The position numbers and the translations under genes were made by a program. The notes beneath the pieces were generated by a model. The model made no database searches. It saw only the letters and a list, made by a program, of their open reading frames with translations, and was not told where the DNA came from. A stretch of 62,674 nucleotides of DNA. It comes from an uncultured Bacilli bacterium. Lineage in GTDB: Bacteria > Bacillota_I > Bacilli_A > RF39 > UBA660. The stretch is taken from the NCBI GenBank assembly GCA_949025205.1, contig CARMXJ010000003.1, positions 1-62,674 of the forward strand. Direction: 5' to 3'. Every line of letters starts with the position of its first letter. The first letter of the stretch is position 1. Of the stretch, positions 15,571 to 44,600 are shown in pieces.

Positions 15571-16374
15571 ATGAATAGTAAAGAAGCTTGTCAATTTTTA
15601 AAAACTATATTTTTAGCTTATAAAGAAAAAAAGAGCAAAAATGAAATTGATATGAATAACTTAAATTTATTTAAAAATATAATTAATATATATTTAACGA
15701 ATGTAGAAAAACAAGATATTAATATATTAATTCAAGATTATAAAGAAAAATATATTTTCAATGAATCCAGAATAGAAGAAAATAATTCTTTAGAAGAACA
15801 ACTAGGCATTGGAGAAGTATACGATTTTATTCAGTCATTTGACTTTAAAAAAGATTACTTCAATTTATTTACAACTTCACTTATAATCCATTCTAAGCTC
15901 TATTCAAAATGTGCTTGCCCTGAATTTGGTGGGAAATTAAGGGATACTACAGTTTATTTATTTGATACAAACTATGAAGTCATGGACCCAATGCTTTCTC
16001 AAAAATATTTTAATAGTTTAATTCCAATCTCATCTAAGATTTTCGATAGTCTTCAAAACGAACCGGGGGGGGGGTACTTTACGTACATTGATAAATGTAT
16101 TATACAAACCACAGATTTAATAAAAGCACAACCGTTTGCAGATGGAAACAAAAGAACATTTAGAGCACTTTTAAATCTGCTATTAAAAAAAATTAAAATA
16201 CCGCCTGTAAATATAGAATTAGATGAAAAAGACCTTTACAAGAATGCGCTTTTAAAAGCAATAAAAGAAAACGATTACACAAAAATCATTCATTTTTATT
16301 ATTATAAGATATGCGATGCTATTATTACACTAGATATCGAGCAATTATTAAATAATCACGATTTTAAAAGATAA
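15571..16374 (+). CDS. Fic/Doc-family protein with a non-canonical (Gln-for-His) active-site motif
   Basis: QPFADGNKRTFRAL compared with the Doc-type HxFx(D/N)(A/G)NKR motif. Contains a G10 tract upstream of the motif. Confidence 0.7.
   Translation: MNSKEACQFLKTIFLAYKEKKSKNEIDMNNLNLFKNIINIYLTNVEKQDINILIQDYKEKYIFNESRIEENNSLEEQLGIGEVYDFIQSFDFKKDYFNLFTTSLIIHSKLYSKCACPEFGGKLRDTTVYLFDTNYEVMDPMLSQKYFNSLIPISSKIFDSLQNEPGGGYFTYIDKCIIQTTDLIKAQPFADGNKRTFRALLNLLLKKIKIPPVNIELDEKDLYKNALLKAIKENDYTKIIHFYYYKICDAIITLDIEQLLNNHDFKR
16065..16074 (+). repeat. G10 homopolymer inside the Fic-like CDS (currently in frame)
   Basis: ccg ggg ggg ggg encodes PGGG; a 10-G run in a very AT-rich genome. Confidence 0.9.
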
Positions 16375-26226: not shown

Positions 26227-28131
26227 GTGAAGAATTTGAAATACATTATAAAAAACGCATCCATTTCTTTAAGTGGTGAGCCTATACTTACAGATATCAA
26301 TTTAGAAATTATAGATACTTCCCATATCGGCATTGTAGGACGTAATGGGGCTGGGAAAACAACCTTATTAAATGCCTTAATCCATAATGAAATGCTAGAA
26401 GAAGGACTAGCGGATGCCAAATTTGAAATCAACAAAATAGGACCATGTACGATTGGATACTTAGAACAAATTACATTTAACGATGAAAATAGAACCCTTT
26501 TAGAAGAAATCAAAAACTGCTATCCTGAAATTTTAGAACTAGAACAAAAACTGGAAAAGCTAACAAAAAAATTAGAAGAAGATTTTTCAGAAAAAACAAT
26601 CAATGAATACACAAACACTTTAGATAGGTACGAAGTTCTAGGGGGATATTCCTACCAAAAAGAATATGAAATTATGTTAAAAAAATTTGGGTTTAGTGAG
26701 ATGGATAAAGAAAAAAGTATATCTTCTTTTTCGGGTGGAGAAAGAACGAAAATTGCTTTTCTAAAATTACTACTTGGAAAACAAGATATTCTCCTACTAG
26801 ATGAACCCACAAACCATTTAGATATTGAAGCCATCGAATGGTTAGAAACTTACCTAAAAAATTATAAAAAAGCTTTTATCATCGTATCCCATGACCGCAT
26901 GTTTTTAAATAACACCGTAAACACTATTTTAGATATCTCTTATAAAAAAGTAACGAAATATATTGGAAATTATGAATCCTACGAAAAGCAAAAGAAAGAA
27001 AATTACGAAAAGACTTTAAAAGATTATGAACGCCAACAAAAAGAAATAGAAAGATTAAATGCTTTATATGAAAAGTTTAGAGCAAAGCCAACCAAAGCCA
27101 AAATGGCATTATCAAAACTTCATATGATAGAGAGAATGGAAAAAATAGAGCGTCCACTAAGAGCAAATGAAAAAACATTTAAAATGAATCTAAACAAAAT
27201 GGAAGCAAGTGGCAAAAATGTACTCTCTTTAAAAGACTTAGAAGTGGGATACGACCATACTTTAGCTAAAATATCTTTAGAAATTATGCAAGGACAAAAA
27301 ATAGGTGTTATCGGAGCAAATGGTACTGGAAAATCAACGCTTTTAAAAACGATTAAAGGAATTATAAAACCCATGAAAGGACACATTTCTTTTGGCTATC
27401 ATGTACATATGGGATACTTTGACCAAAATTTAGAAATGATAAATAACGAACATACCATCTTAGAAGAGTTTAAAGCATCACTCCCTGATTGTTTAGAAAG
27501 CGATGCCAGAAGTGCGCTTGGTGCTTTTCTATTTAGTGGAAATGATGTAAATAAAAAAATAAACGTTTTATCAGGTGGAGAGAAAGTACGACTTCAATTA
27601 TGTAAAATTCTTTATGAAAAACCCAATTTTTTAATTTTAGACGAACCAACCAATCATTTAGATTTAATTGGAAAACAACAACTAGAATCGATTCTAACTA
27701 GCTACAAAGGTACTATCCTGTTTGTTTCTCACGATAGATACTTTGTAAAGAAGATTGCTTCTGATTTAATCGTATTTAATGAAATGGGGGCGAAATTTTA
27801 TTCATTTGACTATGAAACTTATAAGGAGAAAGAAAAGTTTTTAAAGCAACAAAGCCAACCGGAAGCAAAAATTATTCCAACGGAACAAAAGAAAAAGAAA
27901 GCGGAGCTCTCAAACGATTATAAAAAAGAACTTACAAAAATAGATAAAGAAATAACAAAATTAGAAGCAGAAAAAAAGAAATGGAATGAAGAATTATATA
28001 AAGTTGAAAACTATACCGATTACCAAAAGATGCAGGATTTACAAAAAAAGATAGAAGAAATAGAAAAGAAGATTGTTTTCTTAGAAAAAAGATGGGAAGA
28101 TATTGCTAAAGATTTAGAAGAAACAGAATAA
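26227..28131 (+). CDS. ABC-F family ATPase (translation-associated; no TM domain)
   Basis: Two ABC cassettes (GRNGAGKTTLL / LSGGERTK / LLLDEPTNHLD and GANGTGKSTLL / LSGGEKVR / LILDEPTNHLD), an inter-domain linker and a coiled-coil C-terminus. GTG start. Confidence 0.9.
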   Translation: MKNLKYIIKNASISLSGEPILTDINLEIIDTSHIGIVGRNGAGKTTLLNALIHNEMLEEGLADAKFEINKIGPCTIGYLEQITFNDENRTLLEEIKNCYPEILELEQKLEKLTKKLEEDFSEKTINEYTNTLDRYEVLGGYSYQKEYEIMLKKFGFSEMDKEKSISSFSGGERTKIAFLKLLLGKQDILLLDEPTNHLDIEAIEWLETYLKNYKKAFIIVSHDRMFLNNTVNTILDISYKKVTKYIGNYESYEKQKKENYEKTLKDYERQQKEIERLNALYEKFRAKPTKAKMALSKLHMIERMEKIERPLRANEKTFKMNLNKMEASGKNVLSLKDLEVGYDHTLAKISLEIMQGQKIGVIGANGTGKSTLLKTIKGIIKPMKGHISFGYHVHMGYFDQNLEMINNEHTILEEFKASLPDCLESDARSALGAFLFSGNDVNKKINVLSGGEKVRLQLCKILYEKPNFLILDEPTNHLDLIGKQQLESILTSYKGTILFVSHDRYFVKKIASDLIVFNEMGAKFYSFDYETYKEKEKFLKQQSQPEAKIIPTEQKKKKAELSNDYKKELTKIDKEITKLEAEKKKWNEELYKVENYTDYQKMQDLQKKIEEIEKKIVFLEKRWEDIAKDLEETE

Positions 28132-28170
28132 GAAAATATGCTATAATCAAATTAGCAAGAAGGAATAGCG

Positions 28171-28830
28171 ATGGATAATAAATATAATTTAACTCGAGAA
28201 CAAAATGTTTTTCTTTCCAAAAGAAACATTGTAGATTATATATGGAAAAGTGCCAACTTAGAAGGGATTACAGTAACATATTCTGAAACACAAGTACTAT
28301 ATGATGGAGGGATTGTAAATAGTTTAACTGTAAATGAAGTAATAGCCATTAATAATTTAAAATATGCCTGGAACTTTATATTAGAAACAAAAGAATTACC
28401 TCTTAATTATAGAACTCTTTGCGAAATTCATAAATTAACCACCGAAAAATTAGTAATAAATCCAGGAAAAATAAGAACTACTCCCGTAAATATCGGAGGA
28501 ACCAATTGGCATCCCGCATTTCCTTACGAAAGCCAAATTAAAGAAGAATTAGAAGATTTATTAAATCAAAAAGAAAAAACAAAAACAGAAATAGCATTAG
28601 AAACTATGCTTTACATCATGAGAAGACAAATGTTTTTAGACGGAAATAAAAGAGTAGCCATGCTATTTGCTAACAAAATAATGATTGATAACGGCTGTGG
28701 TATTATTACAATTGCGAAAGAAAAACAACCAACATTCTTTGAAAAACTAATAGCCTTTTACGAAACAAATAATATGCAACATTTAAAAGAATGGCTATAC
28801 GAAAATTGTATTGATGGAATAAAATTGTAG
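28171..28830 (+). CDS. Fic/Doc-family protein with a Gln-for-His motif (second copy)
   Basis: RRQMFLDGNKRVAMLFAN compared with the Doc-type HxFxDxNKR motif. Confidence 0.65.
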   Translation: MDNKYNLTREQNVFLSKRNIVDYIWKSANLEGITVTYSETQVLYDGGIVNSLTVNEVIAINNLKYAWNFILETKELPLNYRTLCEIHKLTTEKLVINPGKIRTTPVNIGGTNWHPAFPYESQIKEELEDLLNQKEKTKTEIALETMLYIMRRQMFLDGNKRVAMLFANKIMIDNGCGIITIAKEKQPTFFEKLIAFYETNNMQHLKEWLYENCIDGIKL

Positions 28831-28939
28831 TAAAAAATGAAAGTAAGTTTAAATATTTACTTTTTTTCTTGAATTCAACTAACAGTTTGTTTACTTTTAG
28901 AAAAAAGTATAGCAATAATGAATAAAAAGGAGTAAAAGA

Positions 28940-29797
28940 ATGAAGAATCAAAAAATGGGAGAATTTATAGCCAAATTAAGAAAAGAAAAAGAAATGACAC
29001 AAAAAGCTTTAGCAGAGAAACTATACGTAACAGACCGCGCCGTAAGCAAATGGGAAAGAGGTTTAAGTTATCCGGATATAACGCTTCTAGAAAAATTAAG
29101 TGAAATATTAGAAATAAGCGTAAATGAATTATTAAATGGAGAAAGAATAAACGATTTAACACGAGAAAAAGCCGATGATGTTTTAAAAACAGGAATCAAA
29201 GCTTATAAAAAACAAACAGAAAAAAAATTACACAAAAAAGTAGGACTAGGTATTGGTATTTTTCTTATACTTGGAACAATTCTTTTAGTAGTTGTAAGTG
29301 AATTAAACTATGGAGAAGTTTCTTTAGGCGTAATAAAATTCACATTCCCAAATATTAGCATGCAAGCTGCAAGAAAAAATACAGATAAATTCATGAAAGC
29401 ATTACAAGAGCAAAATTATGAAACATTAGAAAAAATAGTAAGTCCTCAAAAAGGAACGTATAAATTACTTTTAAAAAATACTTCAAACGAAGAAACCATA
29501 AAATTATATCAAGAATTAATTGAAAAAAGTTATCGTGAATTATTAGAAGAATTTTTTAAAGAAGTAGAAATTATAAATTACAAACGGGAAATGGTTTATT
29601 ATAATGGAAATAACTATGCGGTTAGTTATACCGTAAAAATCAAAGTCGAAAACGAAGAATTAACAATCTTGCCTACTTTAGTAGGACATCAAGAAAACAT
29701 AACACTTAGTTCCTTTGGTTGGAAAGATACTTGTAATAATTTTATAAATAATAATCCAGAAACTTGGAATAAAATCAAAAAGATTTTTATGTACTAA
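28940..29797 (+). CDS. Membrane-anchored XRE-family HTH regulator
   Basis: N-terminal HTH KEKEMTQKALAEKLYVTDRAVSKWERG, a single TM VGLGIGIFLILGTILLVVV, and a ~170-aa extracytoplasmic domain. Confidence 0.8.
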   Translation: MKNQKMGEFIAKLRKEKEMTQKALAEKLYVTDRAVSKWERGLSYPDITLLEKLSEILEISVNELLNGERINDLTREKADDVLKTGIKAYKKQTEKKLHKKVGLGIGIFLILGTILLVVVSELNYGEVSLGVIKFTFPNISMQAARKNTDKFMKALQEQNYETLEKIVSPQKGTYKLLLKNTSNEETIKLYQELIEKSYRELLEEFFKEVEIINYKREMVYYNGNNYAVSYTVKIKVENEELTILPTLVGHQENITLSSFGWKDTCNNFINNNPETWNKIKKIFMY

Positions 29798-29929
29798 ATA
29801 CAAGAAAAAAAGCAATTAGCAAACAATAAAAAAATAAAAAGTTCATTATTGACTTTTTTTCATTTTCTCGCTTAAAATGAATAAGGTTCAAAAAATTTTA
29901 ATTAAAATAGTAAAAATAAAGGAGACAAT

Positions 29930-30382
29930 ATGAACAAAACGACTTGTTATTCAGAATTTGTAATACAGAGTAACGGAAAAATGACCAAAAACGGATTTAA
30001 AACAAATAAAAATAGTGAATTTAATCCAGATGAAATAACGAAATTACTAAATATCACTCCATATCATACAACTACTATGAATGCTTCAAGGCCAAACGGA
30101 GTAGGAAACTATCCTTTCTCTACTTGGAGTGGTTGTAAAAAAGAAGAGCCTATATTAGATGCCGAAAAGCAAGTAGAAATGATTGTAGAAGAATTAAGAG
30201 ATAAAATCCCAACACTATTACAAATTAAAAAACGTTATGATGTTCGTTTCTTTATCACTATAGTTCCCTCTATATATAACGAAGAAGCTCCAGTAATCGG
30301 CTTTAATAAAGATATTATTGATTTCTGTTATAAAACAGGAGCCGAAATAGGAGTACATCTCTATGTATTTGATAAAGAATAA
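29930..30382 (+). CDS. Hypothetical protein (possibly DUF4279-like)
   Basis: 150 aa; its own promoter-like TTGACT..17/18 nt..TAAAAT lies at about 29851-29880. The family assignment is from memory and weak. Confidence 0.45.
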   Translation: MNKTTCYSEFVIQSNGKMTKNGFKTNKNSEFNPDEITKLLNITPYHTTTMNASRPNGVGNYPFSTWSGCKKEEPILDAEKQVEMIVEELRDKIPTLLQIKKRYDVRFFITIVPSIYNEEAPVIGFNKDIIDFCYKTGAEIGVHLYVFDKE

Positions 30383-30600
30383 AAAAGAAGCAGAAAATAT
30401 TTATAGAGAAAAAAAGCAAGATAAAAAGAAAAACTAAATATTATCACTTAGGTTTTGAAAAATAGCAAATGGAATTGTTGAGAGGTTTAAAAAGAAAGAA
30501 AACAAAATCTTAGCAATCCAGATGAACTTATATAGTAGAATAACTATTTAAGTCCTTTTATTTTTAAAGTGTCGACTAAAGATTGCAAAAAACAAAAAAA

Positions 30601-30628
30601 TTGACTTGTTAAAAATTTATACTATAAT
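30601..30628 (+). promoter_or_regulatory. Near-consensus sigma-70 promoter of the lipoprotein gene
   Basis: TTGACT (30601-30606), 16-nt spacer, TATAAT (30623-30628). Confidence 0.6.
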
Positions 30629-30655
30629 AAGAAACACCTAAGAAAGGAAACGAAT

Positions 30656-31226
30656 ATGAAAAAAGAAAATAAATTTAAAACCTTTATTGCTATTCTTGGA
30701 ATGAGCACTACTTTATCCTTACTGGGGGGGGTGTGGAAACGCCAATACTGATAATACTACTGCTAGCAAAAGCATATCTCTTACTGATTATCCAGAAACT
30801 AAAATCACGTATGATGAAATGGGTATACACGGGACAGTTTCCTACACAAATTTAGAAACTGGACATTTGCAAATTGTGATTATGGAGTATAGTGGAAAAC
30901 TCCTAGAACCAAAATTAATGGCTATCTCTACTTTAAGTGATGGTGGTATGCGTGGTCCACATTGGAAAACAACAGAATATATAGATTTAAAAATAGGAGT
31001 GACTCAAATCTCTTATACTAATGATAATATCACTCTAGGAGAAGATTTTACCATTGTAGAAGAAATATCCCTTTTTGCTTTTATAATCGAGAAAAATTGG
31101 ATACAAGAGGAATATGAAATAAATGAACTTATCAAGTTTTATGAAGAGAAAGTAAAAAGCAAATTAGAAGAACAAAAAGAGATAGAAGAAAGTAGGCTTT
31201 CTCGTACAAAATGGCAAAATATTTAA
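30656..31226 (+). pseudogene. Lipoprotein gene frameshifted (phase-OFF) at a poly-G tract
   Basis: ATG 30656 encodes MKKENKFKTFIAILGMSTTLSLLGG, then the G8 tract. As written the frame stops at TGA 30749-30751. With 7 Gs it reads LLGG-C-GNANTDNTTASK... (lipobox LGGC) and joins the 30819..31226 ORF frame. Confidence 0.75.
30724..30731 (+). repeat. G8 homopolymer at the lipobox of the lipoprotein gene
   Basis: ctg ggg ggg g; a shift of one frame separates the signal peptide from the mature-protein ORF. Confidence 0.9.
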
Positions 31227-31255
31227 TTGACTAAACCCCGATTTAGTAATAAAAT
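31227..31255 (+). promoter_or_regulatory. Sigma-70 promoter of the T-box leader / aaRS operon
   Basis: TTGACT (31227-31232), 17-nt spacer, TAAAAT (31250-31255). Confidence 0.55.
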
Positions 31256-31261
31256 AAATTT

Positions 31262-31473
31262 ATATAAATTTTCTATGAAAAAGAAAAGTAAGAAAAAAAC
31301 ATTTCTTTAAAAGAGAAGGCTAGGTTGCTGAAAATGCCAAAAGAAATCTTTTTCTGAAAGACAACTTTTTAATACATAGAAACGCACACGTTGCGATAAA
31401 AAGTGAAGAGTACCTAGTAAAGTAAGGTGGCACCGCGGGTTTTTTCTCGTCCTTACATTTATTAGGTTTTTTT
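31262..31473 (+). promoter_or_regulatory. T-box leader (tRNA-sensing riboswitch) upstream of hisS
   Basis: Conserved T-box AAGGTGGCACCGCGG. Antiterminator: GTAAGG (31422-27), 7-nt bulge TGGCACC (31428-34), small hairpin, CCTTAC (31451-56). A U-run follows at 31467-73. AGAGA and GNUGNNA-like elements lie in the 5' part. Confidence 0.8.
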
Positions 31474-31493
31474 ACGTTTAAGGAGGAGAAAAA

Positions 31494-32750
31494 ATGATAA
31501 CAAAACCAAAAGGAACTTATGATGTAATTGAAAGGGATGCATTAAAATTACAAAAAATCAATCGAGTGATAGAATACTATTGTGAATTTTATAACTATGA
31601 CTTTATTAGAACCCCAATTTTTGAATCACGTGACTTATTTCATAGAACCGTTGGGGAAGAAACAGATATTGTTACAAAAGAAACCTATGACTTTAAAGAT
31701 AGAAGTGAACGGGATTTAACACTTCGCCCTGAAGGAACCGCTGGAGTAGTTCGTTCGTTTATCGAAAATAAAATGTATGGTTCTTCTATGCCTAGAAAAC
31801 TTTTCTATAATGGCACGATGTATCGATATGAACGACCTGGAAACGGTAGAAATAGAGAATTTACCCAATTTGGAGTAGAAATTTTAGGAAGCAATGACCC
31901 TATAGTAGATGCTGAAGTAATATCTATGCCTTATCGTATGTTTGAGGAACTAGGATTTAAAGATTTAAACGTAAAACTAAACAACTTAGGTTCTAAAGAA
32001 GATAGGGAAAATTACAAGAGTGCTTTAAAAGAATACTTAAGTCCACATATAGATAAATTATGTGAAGACTGTAAAAGAAGATTTAACACGAATCCACTAC
32101 GCATTTTAGACTGTAAAGTAGATAGTGATTCGGAAATTTTAAAAAACGTTCCAAGTATTTTAGATTATCAAAGTGAGGAATCACAAAAAATATTTAAAAA
32201 AGTATTAGAGTATTTAGATTACTTAGATATTGATTACGAAGTAGATGACAAAATAGTCCGTGGACTAGATTACTACGACTACACCGTATTTGAAATTGTA
32301 AGTAGTGCCGAAGTTTTAGGAGGAGCATCTACTATTGCTGCAGGAGGAAGATATAACGACCTAGTAGAAAAACTAGGAGGACCATCAACGCCATGTATTG
32401 GTTTTGCAAGTGGACTAGAACGCGTAATGCTTGCAATGGATGAATTTGAATCTCACGAAAAAAGACCACTTGATTGTTACATTATGTATGTAAACGAAGA
32501 AGAAAAAATAAAAGCGTTAACACTTGCCCAAGACTTACGCTTAAGTGGTGTATCTGTTGATTATGACACAACAGGAAGAAGTCTAAAAAGTCAATTTAAA
32601 GAAGCCGACCGTATGCATGCAGAATTACTCGTCATATTAAATAGTGAAGATTTAAAGAAAGGTTTAATTACCGTAAAGGATAACATCACCAAAGAAGAAA
32701 CAAAAATAGATGAAAATGAAATCATAGATTATATTGTAACAAATGGATAG
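31494..32750 (+). CDS. hisS: Histidine--tRNA ligase
   Basis: KGTYDV, LRPEGTAGVVRS, YRYERPGNGRNREFTQFGVE, GGGRYD-like AAGGRYNDL. Confidence 0.95.
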   Translation: MITKPKGTYDVIERDALKLQKINRVIEYYCEFYNYDFIRTPIFESRDLFHRTVGEETDIVTKETYDFKDRSERDLTLRPEGTAGVVRSFIENKMYGSSMPRKLFYNGTMYRYERPGNGRNREFTQFGVEILGSNDPIVDAEVISMPYRMFEELGFKDLNVKLNNLGSKEDRENYKSALKEYLSPHIDKLCEDCKRRFNTNPLRILDCKVDSDSEILKNVPSILDYQSEESQKIFKKVLEYLDYLDIDYEVDDKIVRGLDYYDYTVFEIVSSAEVLGGASTIAAGGRYNDLVEKLGGPSTPCIGFASGLERVMLAMDEFESHEKRPLDCYIMYVNEEEKIKALTLAQDLRLSGVSVDYDTTGRSLKSQFKEADRMHAELLVILNSEDLKKGLITVKDNITKEETKIDENEIIDYIVTNG

Positions 32751-44387: not shown

Positions 44388-44422
44388 TTGCTATTCAAAA
44401 AATTGTATGCTACAATGAAATT

Positions 44423-44600
44423 ACCTAAAGGATATAGTTTGTTTTATATAAAACCGACTATGGATATGCTTGGGAATCTAATTGAAGTGTGGTGTAGAAT
44501 GCTAACCCATTAAGTGCTGTTAGAATCCTAAAACATTTCATGTGATGCCCACCTCGCGAGAGCGGGTTTTTATCCAAACAGACTTTCCTTTGGGTTTTTA
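44423..44600 (+). ncRNA. Candidate 6S RNA (ssrS-like) or other structured ~180-nt RNA upstream of tcdA
   Basis: Promoter TTGCTA (44388-93), 17-nt spacer containing TG, TACAAT (44411-16). The 5' CCTAAAGGA (44424-32) pairs with the 3' TCCTTTGGG (44586-94). GTTTG/CAAAC and ATAAAACCG/CGGGTTTTTAT extend a long closing helix, and a T-run follows. In B. subtilis the aspS-yrvM(tcdA) intergenic region hosts 6S-1 RNA. Confidence 0.45.

Follow-up and report, generated by a model that had tools for sequence, protein, structure and literature searches.

A poly-G tract at the lipobox of a small lipoprotein gene as a probable slipped-strand ON/OFF switch in an uncultured mouse-gut Bacilli lineage

Introduction

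Slipped-strand phase variation, textbook knowledge for pathogens of the genera Neisseria, Campylobacter, Helicobacter and Mycoplasma, has to our knowledge rarely been documented in uncultured gut commensals. In the opa genes of Neisseria (CTCTT repeats) and in hopZ, oipA and sabA of Helicobacter pylori (CT repeats), the repeat lies inside the leader-peptide coding sequence and the OFF state yields a short leader fragment. The closest analogue of the locus described here is Vaa of Mycoplasma hominis. According to a passage of PMC524362 that cites Zhang & Wise 1997, a run of 8 A corresponds to the ON state of this gene, and 7 or 9 A to the OFF state. In Campylobacter, runs of at least 7 G/C are the accepted threshold for phase-variable tracts (PMC6321876), and the contingency repeats of Campylobacter and Helicobacter include poly-G/C tracts of at least 7, such as the poly-G of H. 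pylori pldA and the C8 of fliP (PMC6321876, PMC11768039). For the uncultured Candidatus Mycoplasma girerdii, repeat-length variants were detected in metagenome reads and used to predict ON and OFF states, with several genes being majority OFF (PMC5476646).

Here we analyse a stretch of 62,674 bases (the window) from an uncultured low-G+C 'Tenericutes/Bacilli' bacterium, which is known from mouse-gut metagenome-assembled genomes. It contains a lipoprotein gene with eight consecutive G at the lipobox, and we consider it likely, with a probability of roughly three in four, that this locus is switched ON and OFF by slipped-strand mispairing and was captured while OFF. As in opa and hopZ/oipA/sabA, the slippery repeat is located within the leader coding sequence; those genes, however, code for outer-membrane proteins and carry penta- or dinucleotide repeats, whereas a homopolymer at the lipobox is found here. 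The features shared with Vaa, as far as the cited passage describes it, are a surface lipoprotein, a low-G+C Mollicute-type organism and a one-base homopolymer change near the 5' end of the ORF. The logic is also the same, since 8 A (ON) and 7 or 9 A (OFF) are mirrored by G7 (ON) and G6 or G8 (OFF). Unlike in Vaa, the tract is poly-G instead of poly-A and is placed exactly on the Gly-Gly codons of the lipobox; moreover, the protein family is unrelated, and the host is an uncultured gut commensal. Intragenic G/C tracts of at least 7 in an AT-rich genome, translational ON/OFF control, several such genes per genome and OFF alleles that are common among sequenced strains are likenesses to Campylobacter jejuni and H. 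pylori (PMC6321876, PMC11768039). Those Gram-negative Campylobacterota possess dozens of tracts per genome, in contrast to two tracts in 62.7 kb of a Bacilli/Tenericutes-type lineage. Like Candidatus Mycoplasma girerdii, the organism is uncultured and its repeat-length states are read from metagenomic data; there, mostly dinucleotide repeats in BspA-like and restriction-modification genes were described with read-level frequencies, whereas the lengths reported here are at assembly level only (PMC5476646). The mechanism is already known; the host lineage and the protein family are new.

Results and Discussion

A single lipoprotein gene with a frameshift at the lipobox

Judged from its sequence, the region 30601-31226 comprises one gene, which encodes a small membrane-anchored lipoprotein with a 189-aa precursor (Table 1). 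A previous sequence-only reading of this DNA had described a near-consensus promoter and a ribosome-binding site, followed by a G8 run and a reading frame ending at an early TGA, and all four elements lie where it had placed them. The promoter ranks best among 7 promoter-like sites in 30300-31550 and is kept in the relatives L006, L015 and L016. The leader comprises 25 signal-peptide codons; its n-region is rich in Lys and its h-region hydrophobic. The tract, which falls within codons 23-25 of the ORF starting at 30656, encodes Gly-Gly at lipobox positions -2/-1. In the G8 state, the mature region is one base out of frame with respect to the start codon. This region is free of internal stops and includes the called ORF 30819-31226, and tblastn placed residues 24-189 of the repaired protein in a single frame (30726-31223).

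Table 1. Coordinates of the features discussed in the text (positions in the window)
Feature	Position	Strand	Description	Evidence
Second poly-G tract	16065-16074	+	G10, ON; in the Fic-like gene 15571-16374	sequence, strain comparison
Second Fic gene	28171-28830		variable islet	
Membrane-anchored XRE-type HTH gene	28940-29797		variable islet	
DUF4279 gene	29930-30382		variable islet	
Sigma-70-type promoter	30601-30628	+	TTGACT 30601-30606, 16-nt spacer, TATAAT 30623-30628	11/12 consensus matches
Ribosome-binding site	30643-30649	+	AAAGGAA, 7 nt 5' of ATG 30656	read from sequence
Start codon and signal-peptide coding region	30656-30731	+	MKKENKFKTFIAILGMSTTLSLLGG	translation, homologues, family lipobox
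OFF-state ORF	30656-30751	+	31 codons, product MKKENKFKTFIAILGMSTTLSLLGGVWKRQY, stop TGA 30749-30751	translation
Poly-G tract	30724-30731	+	GGGGGGGG (G8, OFF)	read from sequence
Mature lipoprotein coding region	30732-31226	+	TGT (Cys+1) 30732-34, stop TAA 31224-26	translation, tblastn
6S (SsrS) RNA gene	44419-44600	+		Rfam, 63.4 bits

In silico variation of the tract gave products of 189 aa for G7, 31 aa for G8, 66 aa for G9 and 190 aa for G10, and a change by one repeat unit flips the product between the full-length and the truncated form. In the G7 and G10 ON frame, MKKENKFKTFIAILGMSTTLSLLGG is followed directly by CGNANTDN..., i.e. ...SLLGG-C, and translation continues through ORF 30819-31226 to the TAA at 31224-31226. 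The proposal that removal of one G joins LLGG-C in frame to this ORF was thereby borne out, with a resulting ORF of 189 codons.

The G+C content of the window is 29.6%, and only two G/C runs of at least 7 occur in its 62,674 bases, namely the G8 run and a G10 run at 16065-16074. The expected number of runs of G8 or longer in the window is between 0.017 (independent bases) and 0.034 (first-order Markov model), in agreement with the earlier remark that such a run is very unexpected in DNA this AT-rich. With eight G inside an ORF, the tract lies above the length of at least 7 G/C that is regarded as hypermutable (PMC6321876). The functional allele spells L-G-G-C as CTG-GGG-GGG-TGT, which constitutes a G7 run. 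In the genes of the window, CTG accounts for 1.7% of Leu codons and GGG for 9.1% of Gly codons, and, calculated from this codon usage, the probability of a G7 spelling of L-G-G-C is about 8e-4.

The one-base frameshift is the only disabling lesion of the window copy, since promoter, ribosome-binding site, ATG and 165 downstream codons are intact. Several lesions or lost expression signals, which characterize a plain pseudogene, were not found in the window copy. An alternative genetic code, in which TGA is read as Trp as in the database call P0002, was rejected: the long ORFs of the window are intact under table 11, which indicates that the organism uses the standard code. Reading TGA as Trp also fails to extend the OFF frame, because a TAA sits immediately after the TGA at 30749-30751.

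The lipoprotein family and its predicted structure

The repaired protein had 7 matches among 5.8 billion proteins, and 63 family members, most of them 165-190 aa long, were retrieved with a profile from 1.84 billion cluster representatives. The family is small and uncharacterised. Searches with the repaired protein returned nothing above cut-off in Pfam and NCBIfam and no match in a PDB sequence search; a scan of JGI metagenomes with the family alignment yielded no relatives, and no paralogues of the gene are present within the window. A lipobox follows the rule [LVI][ASTVIG][GAS]C (PROSITE PS51257-type pattern); a basic n-region and a hydrophobic h-region precede it, and its Cys lies at about residue 15-35. 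The leader of the G7 frame, MKKENKFK-TFIAILGMSTTLSLL-GG-C with the Cys at position 26, agrees with this description of a lipoprotein signal peptide. In 33 of 38 full-length family members, a lipobox Cys is located at residue 15-40 (LTGC, LSGC, LGGC and similar), and the closest intact orthologues, P0003 and P0005, read ...SLLGGC. The Cys gained by removal of one G is thus the conserved lipid-attachment Cys of the family, and G7 gives the authentic frame. The protein is predicted to be lipidated and surface-exposed.

A first AlphaFold2 model built from 7 sequences was poor (pLDDT 48). From a 38-sequence alignment, the G7 protein was modelled with confidence (pLDDT 85.3, pTM 0.76; model m53ad370b9d21), which further supports this frame. 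In the model, the Cys is followed by a disordered tether; residues 38-138 form a beta-sheet domain and residues 155-187 a long C-terminal helix. A Foldseek comparison of this model with the PDB revealed no similar solved structure (best E 0.24, TM <0.2), and the predicted fold may be undescribed.

Tract length in the window strain and its relatives

All tract lengths were read from assemblies or contigs, i.e. at consensus level. The downstream 135-aa ORF product, P0001, is found on 11 public contigs. Six of these, originating from five samples and comprising ENA assemblies, Logan contigs and one NCBI metagenome-assembled genome, were compared with the window. Over 2.3-6.4 kb they share 99.9-100% identity with the window, and all six carry G8. 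Samples in which the strain occurs are ERR3199521, ERR3199689, ERR3199533, ERR3199584 and ERR3199536. An ON allele was thus absent from the window-strain assemblies (6/6 G8), and a 189-aa ON form of the window lineage was not found in the collection of 5.8 billion proteins. Taken together, the OFF state is stable at consensus level across several animals of one study. Run searches with the window sequence led to runs containing 4-14% of the sampled sequence words, and their contigs represented relatives only.

The sequence-only reading had suggested comparing tract lengths among related strains, and G6, G7 and G8 indeed occur at the same site. A contig from run X15, about 97% identical over 30566-30740, has one G fewer (G7, ON); this contig of 406 bases with a depth of 3.8 is the sole ON example in the window's own clade. 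L016, a lineage with 82% protein identity, carries G6 and is OFF with an otherwise intact frame. Among the sister-species assemblies, six (L002, L032-L036; 52-55% protein identity) have G7 and are ON, with called proteins of 190 or 181 aa, and 13 (L004, L005, L007, L022-L031) have G8 and are OFF, with only fragments of 99 or 109 aa called; as exact ON or OFF protein sequences served as queries for these contigs, the counts are not frequencies. The more distant orthologues L001 and L008 are intact and contain no tract, their lipobox codons being TTA GGA GGA TGT or ACA GGA TGT.

Tract length differs even on near-identical or identical backgrounds. Besides the X15 contig compared with the window, this applies to L029 (G8), which matches L032-L036 (G7) at every variable column of the gene, so that one haplotype is found in both states. 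The ON (190/181 aa) and OFF (99 aa) forms within one 90% cluster have identical C-terminal sequences. One sister-species haplotype was found with G8 in ten samples from several studies.

Sequence variation of another kind was observed in the middle of the sister-species gene. Between L004 and L002/L007, about 45 of 160 nt differ within alignment columns ~157-314, and both ends are about 99% identical. The two alleles of this segment read ...EKGYLKIATLE...YFYKYRPVRGGGGYDTINY and ...ENENIKIIILE...YKYSYAHTLSVSYYDTIDY. These sequences give the middle segment the look of a hypervariable mosaic that arose by recombination, a pattern expected of an exposed antigen. In another orthologue, L003, the orthologous ATG is replaced and the lipobox is tract-free (AGT GGA TGT); a G9 run (1541-1549) lies about 90 nt 5' of this lipobox, where the gene before it ends.

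Poly-G tracts in other genes

The second tract of the window is located in a Fic-like gene of the Fic/DOC family coding for 267 aa (Pfam PF02661, E 4e-6), in frame and just 5' of the degenerate active-site motif QPFADGNKRTFR. It measures G10 in the window, L020 and L021, and G9 in L017, which was obtained from sample ERR3199536 and belongs to the same strain. Over 3,394 bp, L017 and the window show 0 mismatches and a single gap, the Fic tract itself. With G9, the Fic product of L017 is shortened to 182 aa (P0013). At the corresponding site of a sister species (L018, L019), G9 is also found. These comparisons support slippage of poly-G tracts in this organism, and the Fic-like gene looks like a second phase-variable gene, which is ON in the window.

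Divergent from the lipoprotein gene of L002 lies an NlpC/P60-like gene on the minus strand (1260-1810), which a G9 run (C9 at 1472-1480) splits in two. Addition of one G fuses its two ORFs, and the PF00877 match then extends over the point of fusion (E 9e-16). L004 lacks most of this segment. Together with the one-G variation of the Fic tract, the G9 of the NlpC/P60-like gene suggests that poly-G contingency tracts are a habit of these genomes.

Less likely explanations: pseudogene, leaky expression or sequencing error

The best-surviving alternative, which we nevertheless regard as unlikely, is that the G8 allele is a plain pseudogene, in which a frameshift at a mutational hot spot became fixed in the window lineage and the gene is heading for loss, with no reversible or adaptive switching. 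The invariant G8 of the six strain assemblies and the lack of an ON form in the protein collection fit this explanation. It also draws on the immediate clade, most of which is inactivated by differing lesions: the window by G8, L016 by G6, and L006 and L015 by a 5' deletion together with a nonsense codon. The neighbouring species, to which L006 (its species representative), L015 and the X1 and X5 run contigs belong, has lost the tract along with ribosome-binding site, start codon and signal peptide. The deletion amounts to 125 bp in L006, X1 and X5 and is larger in L015; the X1 and X5 contigs skip window positions 30633-30757, and the affected regions are ~3990-4465 in L006 and 246-731 in L015. 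Furthermore, an in-frame TGA replaces an Arg codon (read as Trp in P0002). By sequence, the lipoprotein gene of L006 and L015 has become an irreversible pseudogene, and its death in a neighbouring species implies that loss of the gene is tolerated, perhaps favoured.

Substitution rates speak in both directions. The window and L016, both of which are OFF, give a dN/dS ratio of 0.43. Within the clade it is 0.41-0.43, higher than the 0.19 obtained with distant orthologues (range 0.19-0.26; 0.19 with L002), which fits the pseudogene explanation. Ratios below 1 count slightly against neutral decay, dN/dS being a weak statistic here: the comparison with the dead L006 copy also gives about 0.4, which means that the ratio discriminates poorly at such divergence.

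Several observations argue against simple decay. The frameshift is the sole lesion in a gene with intact expression signals and 165 intact codons, a strain with about 97% identity has G7, an identical sister-species haplotype exists in both states, and the second tract varies within the window strain. Moreover, synonymous sites are saturated between the window and L002 (dS = 1.9), and the tract of rare codons is still found at the same codons in both clades. A G8 fixed in all relatives and accompanied by further downstream lesions, which the sequence-only reading had named as the outcome that would speak for a pseudogene, is not what the relatives show. Its proposal of a phase-variable lipoprotein captured in the OFF state is instead supported by the tract lengths of the relatives, the haplotype with two states, the lipobox of the family and the Fic tract.

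It is improbable that the G8 allele is still expressed by RNA-polymerase slippage or ribosomal frameshifting, in which case the tract would act as a dimmer and not as an off switch. Long homopolymers can support transcriptional slippage, but a G8 run serves this process less well than a long A/T run does. The alternation of G6, G7 and G8 among relatives is the prediction of slippage at the DNA level, and nothing found here specifically favours expression of the G8 allele. The chance that a homopolymer error of sequencing or assembly disguises a true G7 and an intact gene, as the sequence-only reading had also considered, is negligible: homopolymers are error-prone on some platforms and inspection was confined to assemblies, but G8 recurs in six assemblies from five samples and two pipelines (ENA assemblies, Logan contigs), and the same assembly types give G7 in six other samples and G6 in one, so that the pipelines are able to resolve these lengths and an error was rejected as the source of G8.

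A model for the probable ON/OFF switch

According to the slipped-strand switch that we favour, the G7 run would be prone to mispairing during replication, and gain or loss of one G would shift the frame right before the Cys codon. Translation in the shifted frame would stop after 31 residues, and the mature protein would be absent. With the tract at the last two signal-peptide codons, the OFF product would consist of the 31-residue leader fragment only. A later -1 or +2 change in the tract would bring back the ON frame, and in-frame changes to G10 or G4 would leave a usable lipobox (LLGGGC or LLGC). As the window strain carries G8, its gene would be transcribable and translationally OFF.

By slippage, variants with one G less or one G more would arise far more often than point mutations; the Fic case, with one indel and zero substitutions in 3.4 kb, is an example. 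At such a rate, a population would always include some cells of the other phase, and selection by host or phage would set the majority state. Switching is accordingly expected to be frequent and reversible within a population, and OFF variants may be favoured by some host or phage pressure.

A broader reading is more tentative, and we give it less than even odds: these commensals would possess a small poly-G 'phasome', the OFF state of the lipoprotein would be actively selected in the host, and the protein would have a fold without a solved relative. Members of this 'phasome' seen so far may be the lipoprotein gene, the Fic-like gene and the NlpC/P60-like hydrolase gene of the sister species. 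The selecting agent could be, for example, secretory IgA or a phage using the lipoprotein as receptor. Selection for OFF would explain the dominance of OFF across animals, the 5' deletions in the neighbouring species and the mosaic middle segment in the sister species.

The locus provides a clean assembly-level example in a mouse-gut lineage. A tract length of 6, 7 or 8 is a ready marker, readable from existing metagenomes, with which selection of ON or OFF states by host immunity or phage pressure could be examined in vivo. Gene callers split such genes, leaving here a 135-aa 'hypothetical protein', and both the family and its ON/OFF states are therefore invisible to automated annotation of metagenome-assembled genomes.

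Genomic surroundings

Directly after the stop codon of the lipoprotein gene, a second promoter-like site (TTGACT-17-TAAAAT, 31227-31255) heads a 267-nt leader of hisS with a terminator-like hairpin at 31435-31450. No T-box was detected in this leader at the Rfam gathering threshold; at the same threshold, the 6S RNA gene was the only Rfam match in the whole window, with none near the lipoprotein gene. A variable islet occupies 26227-31493, between an ABC-F ATPase gene and hisS. Its genes in the window are the second Fic gene, the XRE-type HTH gene, the DUF4279 gene (Table 1) and the lipoprotein gene, and in relatives it is occupied by other sets, which include a His_Phos_1 gene, 225-aa and 340-aa genes of unknown function and an NlpC/P60 gene.
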